Shown piece after piece: positions 2,812 through 24,233 of a stretch of DNA of 56,855 nucleotides (position 1 is its first letter; each line of letters opens with the position of its first letter). Source of the stretch: an uncultured Collinsella sp. (GTDB lineage: Bacteria > Actinomycetota > Coriobacteriia > Coriobacteriales > Coriobacteriaceae); contig CABUZI010000001.1 in NCBI GenBank assembly GCA_902496005.1, forward strand, positions 1 to 56,855. The letters run 5' to 3'. The notes beneath the pieces were generated by a model. It did not search any database. It had not been told where the DNA came from and saw nothing but the letters and a program-made list of their open reading frames with translations. Both the position numbers and the translations under genes were made by a program.

Positions 2812-4041
2812 ATGGATCGAAATCAACTCGACCCCAGTGTCCCCAGCACCACGGAGGCCAAGAAGATCCCCCTTATCATCAAGGTCTACGCAGTCCTGTG
2901 CACCCTATCTGGCGTGGGCACGCTCCCGTCAGTCGCCGTCTTTATGTGGCAGGTCATCACCGCACTCATTAACGGCAACGTCGCCGCTAAGCTCGGTGAT
3001 AACACCCTGGTCGCGGTTGGCCTTATCGTCGCCGGCATTATGCTCTCGGCGGCAAGCGCGATCATCTTGATCGTCTTTGGCCTGGACCTCATCAAGGACC
3101 AGCGGCGCAATGCCGCCCGCCTGTCTTACGTCCTCATCGCATTTACCGTCGTGGAGCTTTTAGTTGACGTGATGCTCCAGGGCATCGGACCCTTCCTGCT
3201 GCGCCCCGCCGTCCAGCTTGTCATCCTCATTGCGCTGTCGGCCACCGTCGACCCCACGCTACGCCAGGAGCGCGAACTGCAGCGCCGTCTGCAAGAGATG
3301 CTCGACCGCGATGCCGCCGCCGAGGGGATGCTCGGCCGCGACGAAACCGGCGAGGGCTACATCAAGCTCAACTACTTCAACCTGTTCTGGGTATTCTTCG
3401 TCTGCAGCGTGTTAGGTCTCATTCTCGAGGAAGTCTGGCATATGGTCGTCGTCGATCCCGGCGTCTATCAGGACCGTGCCGGTATGCTATTTGGCCCCTT
3501 TAGCCCCATCTACGGATTTGGCGCGGTGCTCATGACCATGGCGCTCAACCGCTTCTATAAAAAGAATCCTCTGATCATTTTCCTGGTAAGTGCCCTGATC
3601 GGCGGCGCTTTCGAGGTGTTTGTAGGCTGGTTTATGCAGACCTCATTTGGCGTGGTGTCGTGGAGCTATTCACACATTAGGCTATTCGGCATGCCCGATC
3701 CCATCGCGGTATTGACCGGGGGACGCACATGCACGCCGTTTGCCTGCATGTGGGGCCTGGGTGGCCTCATCTGGATCAAGGTCTTGCTGCCGCGTCTGCT
3801 TAAGCTCATCAATATGATTCCATGGAAACGCCGCTACTCTGCTACCGTCATCCTGACCGCCGTCATGTTGATCGACGGCGTCATGACGTTGCAATCGCTC
3901 GACTATTGGTATCAGCGCGTCAACGGAACCGTTCGAAATATTCCCGTCGCACAGTTCTATGACAAGCATTTCGATAACGAATATATGGAGAACCGTTTTC
4001 AGAGTATGACCATGAGCCCCAAGGACGCCACACGCGTGTAG
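2812..4041 (+). CDS. multi-pass membrane protein, putative ABC transporter permease (CmpB/DUF1113-like C-terminal domain)
   Basis: Hydrophobic helices; FFVCSVLGLILE, GPFSPIYGFGA and WSYS motifs typical of the family; AAAGGT RBS. Confidence 0.7.
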   Translation: MDRNQLDPSVPSTTEAKKIPLIIKVYAVLCTLSGVGTLPSVAVFMWQVITALINGNVAAKLGDNTLVAVGLIVAGIMLSAASAIILIVFGLDLIKDQRRNAARLSYVLIAFTVVELLVDVMLQGIGPFLLRPAVQLVILIALSATVDPTLRQERELQRRLQEMLDRDAAAEGMLGRDETGEGYIKLNYFNLFWVFFVCSVLGLILEEVWHMVVVDPGVYQDRAGMLFGPFSPIYGFGAVLMTMALNRFYKKNPLIIFLVSALIGGAFEVFVGWFMQTSFGVVSWSYSHIRLFGMPDPIAVLTGGRTCTPFACMWGLGGLIWIKVLLPRLLKLINMIPWKRRYSATVILTAVMLIDGVMTLQSLDYWYQRVNGTVRNIPVAQFYDKHFDNEYMENRFQSMTMSPKDATRV

Positions 4042-4074
4042 CAAACGCCAGAGCAAAATAGCTCCAACACATCA

Positions 4075-5651: not shown

Positions 5652-6116
5652 CTAGGCGTCGGCCATCTCCTGCTTCATCTTCTCGATAACCTTGCGGTAC
5701 TCGGGGTCGCAAGCGCCTAGAATCTGCGTGGCGTAGATGGCGGCGTTCTTGGCGCCGTTGATGGCAACGCAGGCCACAGGCACACCCGAAGGCATCTGCA
5801 CCATCGACAGCAGCGAATCCATACCGCCCAGGTCACTCGTCTTCATAGGCACGCCGATAACCGGCAGCGGCGTGAAGGCAGCCACGACACCACCCAGGTG
5901 AGCGGCCTTGCCGGCGGCGGCAATAATCACTTTGATACCGCGATCGGAAGCAGTCGAGGCCCACTCATGGACCTTCGCCGGCGTGCGGTGTGCGCTCGCA
6001 ATGACGAGCTCATAGGGCACGCCGAGCGCCTCGAGCTCGGCGGTGCAACCTTCCATAACGCCCAGATCGGACTTGGAGCCCATGATGATCCCGACAACCG
6101 GCTTCTGACCTGCCAT
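5652..6116 (-). CDS. purE: N5-CAIR mutase
   Basis: IIMGSKSD, ASAHRTP, AGKAAHLGGV, SLLSMVQMPSGVPVA. Confidence 0.97.
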   Translation of the reverse strand: MAGQKPVVGIIMGSKSDLGVMEGCTAELEALGVPYELVIASAHRTPAKVHEWASTASDRGIKVIIAAAGKAAHLGGVVAAFTPLPVIGVPMKTSDLGGMDSLLSMVQMPSGVPVACVAINGAKNAAIYATQILGACDPEYRKVIEKMKQEMADA

Positions 6117-6553: not shown

Positions 6554-9868
<3,315 letters not shown>

Positions 9869-11515: not shown

Positions 11516-12481
11516 TTACTTTTTCTTGTCCTGTTCCAGCAGATCGGACGGCGTTCGGTCGGGCTTACCGCCGCGGAAAATCTCGCGGCCATGCAGACGA
11601 TGCTCCAGGTCACGTTCGGCCTTTTCCTCGTCAATCTTGGTCTGGCTCACCACCGGGTCCTCAATCAACGACGACACCGAGTTCACCTGCTTCTGAATGC
11701 GCTCGGCGATGGTGTCATCCATACTCACGATGCGCATCTTCCAGTCGATATTCGTGGCGTTGGATGAGCTCTTGGTCCACACGAACGTCAGGATGGCGCT
11801 CTGGTGGCCATGGGCGGGAAACATGCCAAAGAAGGAATCGTGCTGAATGTTGCTATCCTCGTCGATATAGGCGTGAACGTTATACACCACGCGGTCGATC
11901 TTATCGTTGAGCAGCGCGTTGGTCGCAAGCGCCGCGGCCTGAATCTGCCCGTTGGACAGCAGCTCGAGCTCGTTGGCAGACGATGTGTCCAACACCGTCA
12001 CCTCGACCGTGCCCGTACGCTCATCGGCTTCATCGACGGTAAAGTCGAGCGGGAACTGCGTAAAGCCGTTGCCCCACTCAAGGCCGCCCTTCAGCGCCGT
12101 CGAAACGGTATCGACCGAAACGCTCTCGGACAGGTTGGCGGTGTTCAGACGACGCATCACGCCGTAGCCAATCTGCATGCCCACGATCAGCACCAAAATA
12201 CCAATGACCACGGCCATCGCGGTCTTCGTAATGGTATGGCTCACCTGCGAGCCCGAAGGATCGTCCTCGGACAGCGGGTCGATATGTTTTGCCTGGCTCG
12301 CGCGGTCTTCGCTGCGCAACTGCGCTAGCGCCGCTTTGTCACCGCGCTTGGCCGCAGCCTCCTTCTCACGCATGCGCTCGGTTCGCTTTTTAGCAAGCGT
12401 GGGATCCAAGACACCGGATGCATCGATTTCGGAGAATAACTCCGTCACTTCTTCCGGAGTCAAAGGGTTCTTGTCAGCCAT
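11516..12481 (-). CDS. hypothetical single-pass membrane protein
   Basis: 321-aa ORF, one TM segment (AVVIGILVLIVGM), 19 bp downstream of the ABC gene. Confidence 0.75.
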   Translation of the reverse strand: MADKNPLTPEEVTELFSEIDASGVLDPTLAKKRTERMREKEAAAKRGDKAALAQLRSEDRASQAKHIDPLSEDDPSGSQVSHTITKTAMAVVIGILVLIVGMQIGYGVMRRLNTANLSESVSVDTVSTALKGGLEWGNGFTQFPLDFTVDEADERTGTVEVTVLDTSSANELELLSNGQIQAAALATNALLNDKIDRVVYNVHAYIDEDSNIQHDSFFGMFPAHGHQSAILTFVWTKSSSNATNIDWKMRIVSMDDTIAERIQKQVNSVSSLIEDPVVSQTKIDEEKAERDLEHRLHGREIFRGGKPDRTPSDLLEQDKKK

Positions 12482-12500
12482 AAACTTCCTGTCATATCAA

Positions 12501-14273
12501 TCAGTCGAGCTCGTGCGCACGCGCACCTTCGAACTGCATTCGATAGTAACGGGCATAGGTGCCGCCACGGGCGAGAAGCTCCTCGTGCGTGCCACGCTCC
12601 ACAACGCGACCATGCTCAACAGTCGCAATCTCGTCGGCATGCTTAATGGTCGAGAGACGGTGGGCGATGATGATCGTGGTACGGCCGCGTGCCAGCTCTT
12701 CGAGCGACTCCTGCACCGCCTCCTCGCTCTCGTTATCCAAAGCACTCGTCGCCTCGTCCAAGATCAAGATTTTGGGGTTCTTGAGAAACACACGCGCGAT
12801 GGCAACGCGCTGCTTCTGTCCGCCCGAAAGACGGCTGCCGCGCTCGCCCACGACCGTGTCATAGCCCTGTGGAAGCGACTCGATAAAGGCATCGATGTTG
12901 GCGCGACGGGCGGCCTCGGCGATCTCTTCTGCCGTAGCGCCCGGCTTGCCGTAGGCGATGTTCTCGCCAATCGTACCGTCAAATAGATAGACATCCTGCT
13001 GCACCAGGCCGATGGCGCGGCGCAGGCTCTGCTGCGTCACATCGCGCACGTCCTGACCGTCGATGCTAATGGATCCGGTAGCCACGTCATAAAAGCGCGG
13101 CAGCAGCGAACAGGTCGTGGACTTGCCGCCGCCCGAAGGGCCAACCAAAGCGATGGTCTGCCCGGGCTTGATGGACAGGTCCATATGGTCGATAACGGGA
13201 CGCTCGTCGGCATAGCCCTCGCCCAGCTCGACATCCTCGTAGTTAAAGCACACGTCGTGATACTCCACGGCGCCGGCAGTCACCTGCAGATCCGTAGCGC
13301 CCGGCTTGTCCTGGATATCCGGCGCGGTCGAGAGCACCTCGTCCATACGTTTAAAGCCGGCGATAGCCTTCTGATACGTTTCGGCCGAATTGACGAGCGT
13401 CTCAAGCGGCGTGCAGAACAGCGAAATATAGAGTGCAAAGGTCGCCATATCGACCGCCTGCAGCTGTCCCTGGGCGACCAGCCAGCCGCCCAGCAGTACC
13501 ACGATCACATAGAGCACACCCGAGAGCAGGCCATACGTCGCGGTATAGACGCCCATGGCGTGATACATATTCTCCTTGGACGAAAGATAGCGATTGTTTG
13601 AGGCGCGGAACTTGAAGCGTTCGGTCTCCTCATTGGCAAAGCTCTTGACCACGCGCATGCCCGCCAGCGAATCCTGCAGCTGCGCATTGATGCCGCTGAT
13701 CTTTTTGCGGTTGTCGCTAAAGACCTCGCGCATGCGCATGTTCTGCCAAAACATGATGACCGCAAACGCTGCCGTCACCACGGCCATGGCGAGTGCCAGC
13801 ACCGGGGCGATGGTAAAGAGGATCACAAACGAGCCGATGATCTCGATGCCGCAGATGATGATCCACTCGGGCACGTGGTGCGCCGCCTCGCAGATATCGA
13901 ACAGGTCGTTGACCACGCGGCTCATCATGTCGCCCGAGCTGTTGCGGTCGAAGTACGCAAAGCTAAAGCGCTCATACTGGTCGAACAGGTCCTCGCGCAT
14001 TTTGGACTCCATACGCGCGCCCATCACGTGACCCCAATAGCTCACAAAATAACGGCAGGCGCAGCGGACGGCATACATCAGCACCAAGCCCACCGCGATC
14101 ATGCCGAGCGCCTGCATAATGGCAGCCTGACCCTGAGTAAACAGCCCACCGGTCAAATTGCGCAGGATAATGGGGAACGCCAGGTCAATGGCGGCAAGCA
14201 CCAGAGCACAAACAGTATCAGCAACAAAAAGCCCCATCTGGGGCTTGTAATACGAAAGAAACCTCTTCAGCAT
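12501..14273 (-). CDS. ABC exporter, fused permease/ATP-binding protein
   Basis: N-terminal TM domain, GPSGGGKST, LSGGQKQR, ILDEATSALD, IAHRLST. Confidence 0.95.
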   Translation of the reverse strand: MLKRFLSYYKPQMGLFVADTVCALVLAAIDLAFPIILRNLTGGLFTQGQAAIMQALGMIAVGLVLMYAVRCACRYFVSYWGHVMGARMESKMREDLFDQYERFSFAYFDRNSSGDMMSRVVNDLFDICEAAHHVPEWIIICGIEIIGSFVILFTIAPVLALAMAVVTAAFAVIMFWQNMRMREVFSDNRKKISGINAQLQDSLAGMRVVKSFANEETERFKFRASNNRYLSSKENMYHAMGVYTATYGLLSGVLYVIVVLLGGWLVAQGQLQAVDMATFALYISLFCTPLETLVNSAETYQKAIAGFKRMDEVLSTAPDIQDKPGATDLQVTAGAVEYHDVCFNYEDVELGEGYADERPVIDHMDLSIKPGQTIALVGPSGGGKSTTCSLLPRFYDVATGSISIDGQDVRDVTQQSLRRAIGLVQQDVYLFDGTIGENIAYGKPGATAEEIAEAARRANIDAFIESLPQGYDTVVGERGSRLSGGQKQRVAIARVFLKNPKILILDEATSALDNESEEAVQESLEELARGRTTIIIAHRLSTIKHADEIATVEHGRVVERGTHEELLARGGTYARYYRMQFEGARAHELD

Positions 14274-21245: not shown

Positions 21246-21640
21246 TGGTAATAATATCTTTCAACCTCCCAGGCTGCAAGAATAAGCAGCTACAACCTCA
21301 TGACCTCCACATATGTCCATGCTTACATGGCTTTTCATGCGTATTCCAACCAAATGCTGACCAAGAGCTTGACGGATTCGATAGCAAGATACGCCGCGGC
21401 GAGGCAAACCAAATCAAACCGCAGGTCGCCGATTGCAGGGTTGTGGTCGCAAAATGCATACCACCGGTTCGATCGATTGCTTCAAAATTTTAAAATTCGC
21501 CGCCACGTCATTCATGAATACCTATTTTGAACAGGTCATCGAGCGCGATTTTGCTGGTCAGGATGCTTTTTTGGTACTTATCCGGCACATGCCGGATACG
21601 GCCGCGGAGCGAGCGGTTTAAAAAATGCCAAGTTTTCTGT

Positions 21641-21668
21641 TTGCACTTTTCGATTCCTCGTGTATACT
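21641..21668 (+). promoter_or_regulatory. sigma70-type promoter for the tRNA-Ser pair
   Basis: TTGCAC-16 nt-TATACT, 16 nt upstream of the tRNA. Confidence 0.55.
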
Positions 21669-21684
21669 GACTTTCGCATTTAAC

Positions 21685-21775
21685 GGAGAGTTGTCCGAGT
21701 GGCCGAAGGAGCACGATTGGAAATCGTGTAGGCGTCAAAAGCGTCTCCAGGGTTCAAATCCCTGACTCTCCGCCA
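21685..21775 (+). tRNA. tRNA-Ser(GGA)
   Basis: Cloverleaf with long variable arm; anticodon arm CACGA-TTGGAAA-TCGTG; GGTTCAAATCC; encoded CCA. Confidence 0.95.
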
Positions 21776-21823
21776 GTTAATTCCAAAGCAGGCCTTAGAG
21801 CCTGCTTTGTTTTTACCCCACGC

Positions 21824-21914
21824 GGAGGGGTGGCAGAGTGGTTGAATGCGGCGGTCTCGAAAACCGTTTGGCCTGTATAAGGTCACGAGGGTTCGAATCC
21901 CTCCTCCTCCGCCA
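21824..21914 (+). tRNA. tRNA-Ser(CGA)
   Basis: Anticodon arm GCGGT-CTCGAAA-ACCGT; long variable arm; GGTTCGAATCC; CCA. Confidence 0.95.
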
Positions 21915-21926
21915 TTTAGATTGAGA

Positions 21927-21952
21927 AAGCTCCCAGGAAAGGGAGCTTTTTT
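21927..21952 (+). terminator. intrinsic terminator after the tRNA-Ser genes
   Basis: AAAGCTCCC-AGGAAA-GGGAGCTTTTTT. Confidence 0.8.
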
Positions 21953-21979
21953 GTTATCGAGTCATGTTCAAGCAAATAC

Positions 21980-22128
21980 GGCGGAGGAGGAGGGATTCGA
22001 ACCCGCCAGGGCGCGGAGCGTAAAGAAAACGCGCCAGCGGCGCGTTTTTAGCGCAGCGCGATCGGCGTAAGCCGATCGAATAAATTTTGAGCTCCGCTCA
22101 AAATTTGGACATCCCTCCTATTCAGCCA
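21980..22128. repeat. tRNA-3'-end-derived hairpin element
   Basis: 21980-22004 is the exact reverse complement of tRNA nt 21889-21913; three internal hairpins; degenerate direct tRNA 3' end ATCCCTCCTATTCAGCCA at 22111-22128. Confidence 0.75.
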
Positions 22129-22161
22129 CGCCCCCATCGCGTTCGATCCCAGCCCATATCT

Positions 22162-22228
22162 CAAACATGTACACCACCCTCCAAAGATGTCAAAAAATGT
22201 CGTTTTTGGAGTGTGATGTACACATTTG
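22162..22228 (+). repeat. 67-bp self-palindromic repeat, left copy
   Basis: 58/67 identical to the reverse complement of 23363-23429 by manual alignment. Confidence 0.85.
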
Positions 22229-22332
22229 CATATGACGCGCACCGAGCATGAGTCGATTTGCCCTTATCCGGTATATTTCCCCACCTCAACGGACATAAGA
22301 GCTTGGTGTCAGCTCGAAGCGAGAGGTCCCCA

Positions 22333-23340
22333 ATGGATACTCCTGTTCTCATTTCGCATAAAACGGCGTGGCTCGTCCATCATGCACCGCGGAACCTGGT
22401 TCAAGCCGTCGCACAACGCGACTACCAGATAGGTGTGCGGGGCCTCTCTACCCAGCAACGCATCGCGCGCATTCGGCAGGCACTTACCGACTGCGGCATT
22501 CCGTCCACCATGCTCAAGACTATCGACATCTCCGTAGTATTTGCTTTCGAGCGAATTCGCACCAACGGTGTCACTTGCCACGTTCTCGGCCAAAACCTAC
22601 CCTACGAGCATATTGACGAGTTGACGCCCGGCATCTTTATCACCGACGAAGCCTTCACCTTCGTGCTCGCTGCCGAATGGATGGATAGGATCGAATACCT
22701 CGAGTATGGTTACGAAGTTTGCGGCGACTATCGCATGGGGCTCAATTCCTCTGACCCTTACACCGAGCAACCAGCCACCACCTCCAAGGACGAAATTGTC
22801 GAGCTGCTCGATCGGCACCCCGGCAAACCCGGCGCCACACGCGCCAGACTCGCGCTCAGACACATCTACGACCACTCAGCCTCGCCCATGGAAACCGCAT
22901 CGTCCATCGCCCTCTCGCTCCCTACAAGCGAAGGCGGCATTGGTATCCGAGGTATCGAACTCAACAAACCGCTCGAAATCCCTCAACGTCTCTGGCATTG
23001 CACAAAGGCCCGAACGCTCAAAATCGATGCCCTCATTACCTATAAGCGCAGAGAACTCAGCATCGAATATAAGGGCGGCTTTCACGATGAGGTCGAACGC
23101 AAGGGAGCGGACGCGGAACGAGAGGCCGTACTCGCCCAAATGGGATATCGAATCGTTACGCTCACCTCGGCACAGTTCGCAAGTCAACTTGCCTTTCACC
23201 GCGCCATGAACAGCATTCGCGAAGCACTCGGTATGCCCCGCTGCACGGACGCCGAGTACCAGCGAAAGCAGAACGAACTGCGCAAGGCACTTATCCGCAA
23301 CTGGAAGCGCGCGCAGGGCGAAGACACGCCTTCCGAGTAG
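22333..23340 (+). CDS. AbiEi/DUF559-like protein with C-terminal PD-(D/E)xK (Vsr-like) nuclease domain
   Basis: GAGAGG RBS; HPG.PG..RAR.AL, SASPMET, KIDAL...IEYKGGFH, GYRIVTLT motifs typical of actinobacterial DUF559-like proteins. Confidence 0.65.
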   Translation: MDTPVLISHKTAWLVHHAPRNLVQAVAQRDYQIGVRGLSTQQRIARIRQALTDCGIPSTMLKTIDISVVFAFERIRTNGVTCHVLGQNLPYEHIDELTPGIFITDEAFTFVLAAEWMDRIEYLEYGYEVCGDYRMGLNSSDPYTEQPATTSKDEIVELLDRHPGKPGATRARLALRHIYDHSASPMETASSIALSLPTSEGGIGIRGIELNKPLEIPQRLWHCTKARTLKIDALITYKRRELSIEYKGGFHDEVERKGADAEREAVLAQMGYRIVTLTSAQFASQLAFHRAMNSIREALGMPRCTDAEYQRKQNELRKALIRNWKRAQGEDTPSE

Positions 23341-23362
23341 CGTCATCCCAGCGCGCCACACC

Positions 23363-23429
23363 AAAACATGTGCATCACCCTCCAAAACCGACATTTTTTG
23401 ACATCTTTGGAGGCTGATGTACACGTTTG
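23363..23429 (-). repeat. 67-bp self-palindromic repeat, right copy (inverted)
   Basis: Inverted copy of 22162-22228, starting 22 bp after the stop codon. Confidence 0.85.
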
Positions 23430-23543
23430 GTGTCTACGCCCGCATCCAGTCCCGACCGTTTACCGAGCAATAGGGTCGCCACGCCCGCCAACCATGTACT
23501 ATGTACGGGCATTGTCTAAACCCACAATCAGAAGGACCCCATC

Positions 23544-24233
23544 TTGCCCGTCGTCGCCGCTATGACCGTTACCGCACACGCCTCGGATGCCATGGTCGCT
23601 ATCCCCTTTTGGCTCGAGATGTTCGCTGTTGTCGCGGCGTCGATCTCGGGCGTTCTGGTCGCGCGCGAGCACAAGCTCGACCTGGTGGGCGCCGTCGCGC
23701 TCGCCGTGGTTTGCGGCCTGGGCGGCGGTCTTTTGCGCGATATGACGCTGCAGGTGGGCAACGTCTACATCCTCAACCAGCCGATGGCGCTCCCGCTCTC
23801 CATTGCCACGGCAGCCATCATCTACATTTTCCCGGCAATCGTCGACAAACCCGAAAAACTCATCCCCCTGCTCGACATTATCTCGGTCGGCATCTATGCC
23901 GCCACCGGAGCAGACAAGGCGCTGGTCTACGGCTTTGCGCCGGCGGTGTGCATCATGATGGGCTTTTTTACCGCGGTGGGCGGTGGCATGTTGCGCGACA
24001 GCTTTATGGGCGTGGTGCCGGGCATTTTCCAGCGCACCAACTTCTATGCCATCGCAGCCATTGCCGGCTCGGCAAGCTATGTATGCCTTGTCATGAGCGG
24101 CGTCGTCAGCAACATCACTGCGTTGATCGTATGCGTTGCGATAACTATGGGGCTACGTTGGCTGTCACTGCGCTTTGACATCAAAAGCCCCACCGAGGAA
24201 GACATCGCCCGCTTTTTGCACCGTAAAAAGTAG
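23544..24233 (+). CDS. trimeric intracellular cation channel (UPF0126/YadS) family membrane protein
   Basis: Duplicated GLGGGLLRD / AVGGGMLRD motifs; about 7 TM helices. Confidence 0.88.
   Translation: MPVVAAMTVTAHASDAMVAIPFWLEMFAVVAASISGVLVAREHKLDLVGAVALAVVCGLGGGLLRDMTLQVGNVYILNQPMALPLSIATAAIIYIFPAIVDKPEKLIPLLDIISVGIYAATGADKALVYGFAPAVCIMMGFFTAVGGGMLRDSFMGVVPGIFQRTNFYAIAAIAGSASYVCLVMSGVVSNITALIVCVAITMGLRWLSLRFDIKSPTEEDIARFLHRKK

Follow-up and report, generated by a model that had tools for sequence, protein, structure and literature searches.

Why does a gene for a nuclease-like protein stand alone between two inverted palindromes beside a tRNA gene, and is such an arrangement a mobile or a defensive unit? 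This question is raised by a locus in a 56,855-nt stretch of DNA (hereafter the window; contig CABUZI010000001.1 of GenBank assembly GCA_902496005.1, positions 1 to 56,855) of an uncultured Collinsella sp., in which the gene of the protein P0001 is bracketed by two copies of a 67-nt palindrome, here named alpha. The analysis firmly supports two conclusions: that this is a nuclease gene, conserved and under selection, whose repeat-bracketed cassette occupies a polymorphic hot spot, and that the same design, with different repeats, occurs around deep paralogs of the gene, the repeats being selected foldback elements. Taken as a whole, the alpha-104 nt-gene-22 nt-alpha unit is, on balance, best explained as an accessory gene cassette of Collinsella, which is probably selfish or defensive. 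Contigs (of the source genome unless stated otherwise), genomes and loci are designated below by C, G and L numbers, respectively.

A sequence-only reading of the window had described inverted 67-bp copies with a shared core, each copy a hairpin, enclosing a single gene right after a tRNA; coordinates, alignment and folding all agree with this description (Table 1). In aligned rows, 58 of the 67 positions are identical between the two inverted copies, which have the core CCTCCAAAGATGTCAAAAAATGTCG in common, and a repeat search extended the inverted arms to 22162-22240 and 23351-23429 (79 nt, 84% complementary). The four strands of the two hairpins fold with -14.8 to -22.2 kcal/mol (z of -3.0 to -5.7 against dinucleotide shuffles), and equally stable folds were obtained from at most 1 of 200 shuffles per strand. 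Only one long open reading frame (ORF) lies between the copies, running from its ATG at 22333 to a stop codon that ends at 23340. The alpha-gene-alpha arrangement is kept in all 80 further orthologous loci collected from Collinsella records (88-99% identity) and therefore the pairing of the palindromes is not a matter of chance.

The idea that paralogous genes carry cognate repeats of their own was borne out. A paralog on C135 (gene at 2913-3950, 36% identical to P0001 by tblastn) is bracketed by palindromes of a second family, beta (2747-2811 and 3988-4054), which are 65-67 nt long, 98% alike, have CAAAC...GTTTG ends and are placed 101 nt upstream and 37 nt downstream of the gene. Three more beta copies are present in the source genome (C45, C11 and C226), and the family was found in 73 of 80 other Collinsella genomes, typically as a pair accompanied by two single copies 3-20 kb off. 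No solo-palindrome allele of beta was detected in five genomes with few beta matches, the gene being present in all five. A third family, gamma (5936-6015 and 7345-7410, within 122-nt direct repeats), flanks a remote homolog on C55 (6305-7267) that belongs to a second branch of the protein family (hhalign of A1 against A3: probability 95.8%, E 7e-9, 230 columns) and whose N-terminus matches the PADLOC AbiEi models (E 3e-9).

The frequency of such flanks was established by a genome-wide count of 270 non-shadow ORFs (280-420 aa, more than 800 nt from a contig end), in which a repeat of at least 24 nt common to both 700-nt flanks was scored. Such repeats accompany 12 of the 270 ORFs, namely 6 of 8 family genes (C1, C91 and C17 of the first branch; C55, C13 and C169 of the second) versus 6 of 262 others (Fisher p = 4.9e-8), and 7 of 10 family genes when all ten of the source genome are counted. 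Several of these repeats are plain direct ones, e.g. 70 nt at 97% on C91 and 50 nt at 100% on C13. In the order, the family is present in 84 of 121 genomes (E <= 1e-15; 1-18 copies each). Among 60 distant members from other genera, hand-picked from the top of the order-wide list, 11 have flank repeats, six of them 137-361 nt long and either direct (L183, 202 nt; L196, 163 nt; L202, 220 nt) or inverted (L186, 361 nt; L203, 187 nt; L173, 137 nt), and several of the long repeats are foldbacks themselves. Cognate flank repeats around this family are thus frequent and recurrent, not universal.

P0001 itself had been likened to AbiEi/DUF559 (Vsr-like PD-(D/E)xK) proteins, which proved right at the level of the fold. 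In the Pfam search (E up to 1) it matched only three weak nuclease-fold families, i.e. the MTES_1575 restriction endonuclease (E 2e-4; 21.8 bits, gathering cut-off 38.2), DUF559 (E 0.022; 15.1 bits, gathering cut-off 20.6) and, also below threshold, DUF2726 (E 0.17), so that the protein is a relative of DUF559/MTES_1575 below the Pfam threshold for membership. No HUH or DDE family appeared in this search and the fold is Vsr-like, in keeping with the earlier statement that neither motif is present. No NCBIfam or PADLOC family scored above threshold, and a Foldseek search of the PDB returned nothing at E <= 1e-3; the predicted model shows both a Vsr-type nuclease fold and an AbiEi-like fold, and a wide VIA-align search gave an EDxHD-family (Vsr-like) homing endonuclease as its best structural match. 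The alignment of the model to AbiEi is limited to residues 65-195 of the latter, which leaves P0001 without the N-terminal winged-helix part. Two weak matches to P0001 were found in the plasmid collection, both on very large replicons.

An exhaustive phmmer search yielded 2637 cluster representatives at E <= 1e-3 (1266 at E <= 1e-10). In 45 diverse full-length members, S184, G201, D232, E245, H251 and D260 are invariant and P185, E187, Y246, R263, L267 and G271 nearly so, which identifies the SPMET and D...IEYxG..H motifs singled out earlier as conserved family positions. The invariant acidic and histidine residues appear to fit the composite Vsr-type (EDxHD) motif of acidic and histidine residues as it is described in PMC3239194. 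Modelling of two P0001 chains gave a symmetric dimer formed through residues 219-305 with a score of 0.55 (best control, 0.00), a value attained by 20 of 30 proteins whose structures had been solved as pairs and by 1 of 23 with single-chain structures; at least 87% of contacts were common to the three runs, with a partner pLDDT (predicted local distance difference test) of 88. The protein is therefore predicted to be, probably, a homodimer. The gene is intact in 79 of the 80 orthologs, the remaining one stopping one codon early, and the median ratio of nonsynonymous to synonymous divergence (dN/dS) is 0.10 over the 285 usable of 300 sampled ortholog pairs (mean dS 0.50); it is under purifying selection.

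The surroundings of the gene are far less constant than the gene. As had been expected of a tRNA insertion site, the locus is highly variable between species, and classification of the 30 genomes with the best match to the TRIC gene (window included) revealed four states: palindrome-gene-palindrome co-oriented with the TRIC gene (state A, 5 genomes including the window), the same in the opposite orientation (state B, 11 genomes), one palindrome and no gene (state C, 5 genomes: L042, L055, L056, L063 and L065), and neither gene nor palindrome (state D, 9 genomes). The D alleles read ...CCCCAAACATGGTACCTACG..., the right flank following directly on the initial 8 nt of alpha; because these 8 nt remain, they are deletion remnants and not pristine empty sites. 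Of the empty-site alleles foreseen beside tRNA-Ser, gene-less ones were thus found (five solo, nine remnant), but no clean empty site. Compared with A, the B allele is missing a stretch equivalent to approximately 21961-22161 and is about 25 nt longer on the TRIC side, and its inverted repeat runs about 11 nt inward past the palindrome. A simple inversion between the two alpha copies was considered as the origin of the inverted allele and ruled out, because the outer flanks of the inverted and the co-oriented alleles are not the same. All 80 further orthologs keep both palindromes beside the TRIC gene (50 co-oriented, 30 inverted). The orientation of the palindrome loops, read in the frame of the gene, is up+/down- in 34 of these loci, up-/down- in 16 and up-/down+ in 30, and along the chromosome all four combinations are present; it is therefore the central loop that changes orientation, the arms remaining as they are.

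Occupied, solo and remnant alleles thus coexist in the genus, uncoupled from the phylogeny of the flanks, and together with the best structural match, the predicted homodimer and a palindromic site, this brings to mind a free-standing homing endonuclease, for which P0001 would cut the solo alpha at gene-less alleles and repair from an occupied allele would copy the gene in. We regard this as quite unlikely. The presumed target is undisrupted in occupied alleles, in which both palindromes are whole (80 of 80 loci), and the gene is free-standing and intergenic, outside any intron or intein context. Homing genes pass through a cycle of gain, decay and loss, for which strong purifying selection across 80 orthologs would be unusual.

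Table 1. Coordinates of the palindrome-bracketed unit and its neighbours (positions of the window).
Feature	Position	Strand	Description
tRNA-Ser(cga)	21824..21914	+	conserved left neighbour of the variable locus
Variable stretch, ~150 nt	21980..22128	.	opens with an inverted copy of the tRNA-Ser 3' end, closes with a degenerate direct copy
Upstream alpha palindrome	22162..22228	.	67 nt; ends CAAAC...GTTTG; arms of ~25 bp; asymmetric A-rich loop
Leader, upstream palindrome to ATG	22229..22332	+	104 nt; mean pairwise identity 0.795 vs 0.909 for the palindrome
Gene for P0001, 335 aa	22333..23340	+	AbiEi-like 1-179 (C-terminal-domain type); Vsr/DUF559-like PD-(D/E)xK nuclease 183-302
Downstream alpha palindrome	23363..23429	.	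starts 22 nt past the stop codon; loop inverted relative to the upstream copy
Gly_transporter (TRIC-type) membrane protein gene	23544..24233	+	conserved right neighbour of the locus

The variable stretch to the left of the unit has an architecture of its own. Its first 25 nt (21980-22004) are an exact inverted copy of the tRNA-Ser 3' end, the degenerate direct copy occupies 22111-22128, and three short hairpins lie between the two. The stretch is missing from the inverted-gene alleles and from L069, its Rfam matches are weak and sub-threshold only, and it looks like a remnant of an old tRNA-targeted integration. Across 21500-23700, the Rfam search (E <= 1) placed only two tRNAs above threshold, the palindromes giving sub-threshold, microRNA-like hairpin matches. 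Short direct repeats are present outside the whole unit, at 22127-22140 and 23436-23449 (CACGCCCCCATC and TACGCCCGCATCC), and L044 carries a larger deletion whose junction joins exactly these two sequences.

Alpha is a rare element. The source draft genome (233 contigs, 88.5% complete) contains six copies: the two of the window, two on C20 that form a direct pair with a spacing of 1075 nt (12349-12412 and 13424-13484), and single copies on C150 (1253-1320) and C42 (7819-7889). No consistent target-site duplication was found at these six copies, the whole element being a foldback. A 22-nt core pattern (up to 2 mismatches; a reversed-pattern control gave 0 everywhere) was detected in 32 of 36 other Collinsella genomes, with 1-6 matches per genome, a number which draft assemblies may undercount, and in 0 of 24 genomes from other genera of the order. 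The locations recur: twenty additional alpha sites, taken from 13 genomes, lie without exception between tRNA-Ser and the TRIC gene, between the Dus and glutaredoxin genes (the C20 site) or at the C150 locus. Alpha is thus specific to the genus and, with few copies at stable positions, it is not a proliferating family of repetitive extragenic palindromic (REP) sequences; the REP-like dispersal that had been proposed is not supported by a genome-wide count that is low and confined to 3-4 fixed loci, unlike that of REP families.

Across the 80 loci, the mean pairwise identity is 0.909 for each alpha copy versus 0.754 for third codon positions and 0.795 for the leader, and alpha is thus conserved beyond near-neutral sites. 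Upstream and downstream copies are 0.904 identical within the same genome and 0.892 between different genomes; they are alike because both are conserved toward a common consensus, and local gene conversion is not needed. Conservation of this degree could mean that the palindromes are regulatory DNA or RNA, that is, operators through which the AbiEi-like protein would control its own gene (possibly with looping between the two copies) or insulating or stabilising transcript hairpins, the other alpha sites then belonging to the same regulon. AbiEi antitoxins do autoregulate through binding to inverted repeats, P0001 is a predicted dimer, and in two deep paralogs the upstream copy precedes the ATG by nearly the same length (104 and 101 nt); P0001, however, lacks the AbiEi winged-helix N-terminus, the second copy lies past the stop codon, and other copies flank unrelated cassettes or stand alone. 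The loop, which is the only asymmetric part of alpha and contains a TTGACA hexamer, is found in either orientation before intact genes, a consensus scan revealed no terminator-like or promoter-like site on the alpha palindromes, which are hence not terminator-like, and other members of the family have simple direct repeats of 50-220 nt in their flanks.

The symmetry of alpha bears on the same issue. In an alignment of 147 distinct copies, a 27-pair stem is paired in 87.4% of cells and several pairs occur in compensatory classes: AU 79 and GC 51 at pair 16-60, CG 122 and AU 24 with none unpaired at pair 22-54, UA 88 and CG 19 at pair 17-59, and AU 54 and GC 19 at pair 10-66. Position 20-56 is unpaired in 86 of the 147 copies. 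Cells changed on both sides number 142 versus 89 +/- 6.4 in shuffles (0 of 500 shuffles as high) and at most 49 in slid controls; kinship among the copies inflates these counts, the symmetric changes being plain nonetheless. Judged from these alignments, such symmetry points to a constraint on a hairpin or cruciform, or else to copying from one arm to the other, rather than to a fixed duplex half-site. Compensatory arm changes also differ between sites of one genome, which fits a hairpin or arm copying better than a fixed half-site for a protein; all in all, a regulatory role of the palindromes seems improbable to us.

The view that P0001 belongs to a cassette defined by its repeats has to be set against evidence pointing the other way, much of which concerns palindromes around other cargo. 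In the source genome, 59 families account for 142 long palindromes, each with 20 paired bases or more. The alpha pair on C20 brackets a cassette with an RHH_1 (CopG-type) gene (12412-13424; L006 1564-2576) located between the Dus and glutaredoxin genes, the gamma pair on C205 (218-1726; L244) brackets a Fic-domain gene (PADLOC SoFic model, E 7e-106), and other palindrome families bracket a peptidase gene and a segment comprising gpmA and a transporter gene. Same-family pairs around non-nuclease cargo imply that a nuclease in cis is not needed for bracketing, and part of the enrichment described above may be due to nuclease genes being the commonest small accessory cassettes. Three of the ten family genes (C37, C10 and C2, the last scored on its profile-matched core since its ORF fell outside the set) have no flank repeat, nor has the closest other paralog (G133:C8, 42% identity), and 49 of the 60 distant members are without a shared repeat within 700 nt. 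Alpha is found at the same 3-4 loci in all genomes examined and is still present in gene-less genomes, e.g. G021 and G019.

The remaining adverse points concern movement and defence. All 80 orthologs lie at one chromosomal locus, with no transposition and no unit at a new site among them, and P0001 has no match among the PADLOC models or in the phage collection. The locus states are scattered over a maximum-likelihood tree of the adjacent 1.9 kb (29 rows), with 16 changes versus a mean of 15.8 in shuffled labels. The D alleles are identical by descent, because all share one junction; from this and the scatter of states it follows that old alleles were exchanged between lineages, presumably via homologous recombination in the flanks, and such ordinary recombination of old alleles explains the scatter without any nuclease.

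Palindromes close to accessory genes are common in this genome. The largest families have 21, 18 and 15 copies and consist of 55-140-nt foldbacks, e.g. TGTCTCGATCTGTAACAG...CTGTTACAGATCGAGACA and AGTTGCGGTGAAATAGGGACTGTTT..., some of them in tandem clusters (e.g. C5 4904-7541, C13 4195-4413 and C169 2247-2386), which are like the mosaic REP arrays of enterobacteria, and different families adjoin, a third family being found at a distance of 6 nt both from alpha (on C20) and from gamma (on C205). It could thus be supposed that alpha, beta and gamma are passengers, i.e. ordinary palindromes resembling REP sequences or miniature inverted-repeat transposable elements (MITEs), which accumulate at hot spots of recombination (tRNA flanks and accessory islets, for instance) without any interaction with the gene. 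The number and adjacency of the families, the same-family pairs around SoFic, the RHH cassette and the other cargo, and the stability of the alpha sites irrespective of gene presence are what such a supposition predicts; the enrichment of 6 of 8 versus 6 of 262 is not, and neither is the bracketing of three deep paralogs each by one family, which differs from paralog to paralog, with near-identical upstream spacing in two of them, nor the long cognate foldbacks around distant members in genera where alpha, beta and gamma were not found. A passenger origin is therefore held to be unlikely. As to the proposed tie of the repeat to the gene, it was upheld in part: cognate pairs are enriched at family genes, but alpha outlasts its gene and palindrome families bracket other cargo as well.

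The C20 site illustrates how variable such cargo can be. An RHH_1 antitoxin-like gene is always present in the cassette, the other content varying over 0.9-2.3 kb across genomes and including an ORF of 100 aa that matches nothing in Pfam, one of 428 aa with weak matches to PADLOC PDC-S02 or one of 176 aa. The GC content of the cassette is 37-50% versus ~58% in its flanks, and in G021 and G013 the site is a solo palindrome. A BrnT-like toxin was considered for the small ORF upstream of the RHH gene and dropped, no Pfam match being found. A repeated segment of ~180 nt (75-87% identity) occurs upstream of the C20 locus in several genomes and at C10 9772-9952, C51 4442-4624 and C55 3465-3641. Next to the beta unit, an extra ~3.9 kb is present between the left flank and the bracketed gene in at least three of the five genomes with few beta matches, namely in L264/L268 (G061), L263/L269 (G019) and L262/L267 (G028), which suggests another variable cassette.

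How could a cassette of this kind work? In the reading preferred here, the accessory cassette encodes a restriction-endonuclease-fold enzyme, in which a Vsr/DUF559-like domain is joined to an AbiEi-like domain and which is maintained by purifying selection in the manner of a selfish or defence-type gene, and its borders would be the two flanking copies of the genus-specific foldback repeat. Each alpha copy holds both arm orientations, and therefore recombination between copies can invert the cassette, delete it to a solo palindrome and flip the loops; it can also swap the cassette with other alpha-bracketed sites. Such recombination is enough to explain the observed allele series.

A more active part of the enzyme can be proposed only tentatively, and we rate it as somewhat short of an even chance: the dimeric nuclease may recognise its own ~67-bp palindrome, as duplex or as extruded hairpin, with cuts that drive insertion, duplication or rearrangement. 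We infer an action on the repeats from the pattern of one family per paralog, from the predicted dimer and from the likeness to a dimeric Vsr-fold homing enzyme, which is described as covering ~60 bp of pseudopalindromic DNA (PMC3239194). If nicked at both ends, the palindrome would yield 67-nt overhangs able to fold back, and fill-in after capture of DNA would duplicate the whole palindrome.

In its widest form, which appears rather unlikely, this proposal would make the AbiEi-Vsr nucleases of Coriobacteriia the dedicated enzymes of a new mobile system, each recognising its own repeat, making staggered cuts at its ends and inserting, duplicating, inverting or swapping cargo (its own gene as well as SoFic or RHH cassettes), i.e. 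a non-HUH, non-DDE counterpart of REP sequences and their REP-associated tyrosine transposases (RAYTs) with integron-like shuffling. The core sites of integron attC elements follow the consensus RYYYAAC ... GTTRRRY, which the CAAAC...GTTTG ends of alpha do not fit. When compared with MITEs, alpha is wholly a foldback, and the gene-less D alleles retain 8 nt of the element.

The closest described kind of arrangement is that of restriction-modification units flanked by long direct or inverted repeats, with a lone repeat copy at the corresponding gene-less site in a related genome (Furuta et al. 2010, PMC2853133); in the account given there, it was left open whether the nuclease drives the event. 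Like these units as that source describes them, the cassettes comprise a restriction-endonuclease-fold gene between repeats of more than 30 bp with no transposase or integrase inside, have gene-less, solo-palindrome alleles in related genomes (5 loci) and occur in the family in direct as well as inverted forms, recalling its 'insertion with long target duplication' and its transposon-like inverted repeats. Unlike them, as described in the same source, the cassette is a single ORF without a methyltransferase, its nuclease is a lone Vsr/DUF559-like domain to which an AbiEi-like domain is fused, and its repeats are foldback palindromes from small dispersed families.

Other known systems share parts of the design. 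As in REP/RAYT systems, the enzyme gene stands between inverted hairpin repeats, further copies of which occur elsewhere, and different paralogs have different repeats. In contrast to these systems, P0001 has no HUH/Y1 fold, and alpha is present in 4-6 copies at fixed loci rather than in hundreds, is 67 nt instead of 20-40 nt long and is without the GTAG or CGTC end tags that PMC3733652 gives for REP sequences. The only Y1_Tnp (IS200/RAYT-like) gene of the genome lies elsewhere (C160 595-1629; a 345-aa frame with a C-terminal, helix-turn-helix-like tail), and no catalogued palindrome family was found beside it on this 3.5-kb contig. Unlike I-Bth0305I and the EDxHD homing endonucleases as portrayed in PMC3239194, P0001 is encoded outside an intron or intein with its flanking sites intact, has an AbiEi-like N-terminal domain and not NUMOD, and its gene is chromosomal and conserved across species. 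It differs from the AbiE system too, having a fused nuclease domain, no winged-helix N-terminus according to the model and no adjacent gene for an AbiEii nucleotidyltransferase, as there is one gene between the repeats and its neighbours are the tRNA-Ser and Gly_transporter genes.

The arrangement is a repeat-bracketed restriction-fold gene unit with a REP/RAYT-like layout, and no description of a palindrome-bracketed AbiEi-Vsr nuclease was found in searches of an open-access library of papers. The pattern suggests a little-known kind of movable or defensive gene cassette. AbiEi/DUF559-type proteins constitute a very large family of unknown function, and the reproducible link between these genes and their cognate foldbacks gives this family a first testable role, namely the cutting or binding of DNA at defined palindromes, which is strengthened by the polymorphic, invertible and deletable loci and by the repeats common to known defence genes. 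The link also hints at a mode of organisation and exchange of small cassettes, defensive or selfish, in a common genus of the human gut and, if it is true that the nuclease drives the rearrangements, P0001 and its relatives would represent a new class of mobile-element enzyme.

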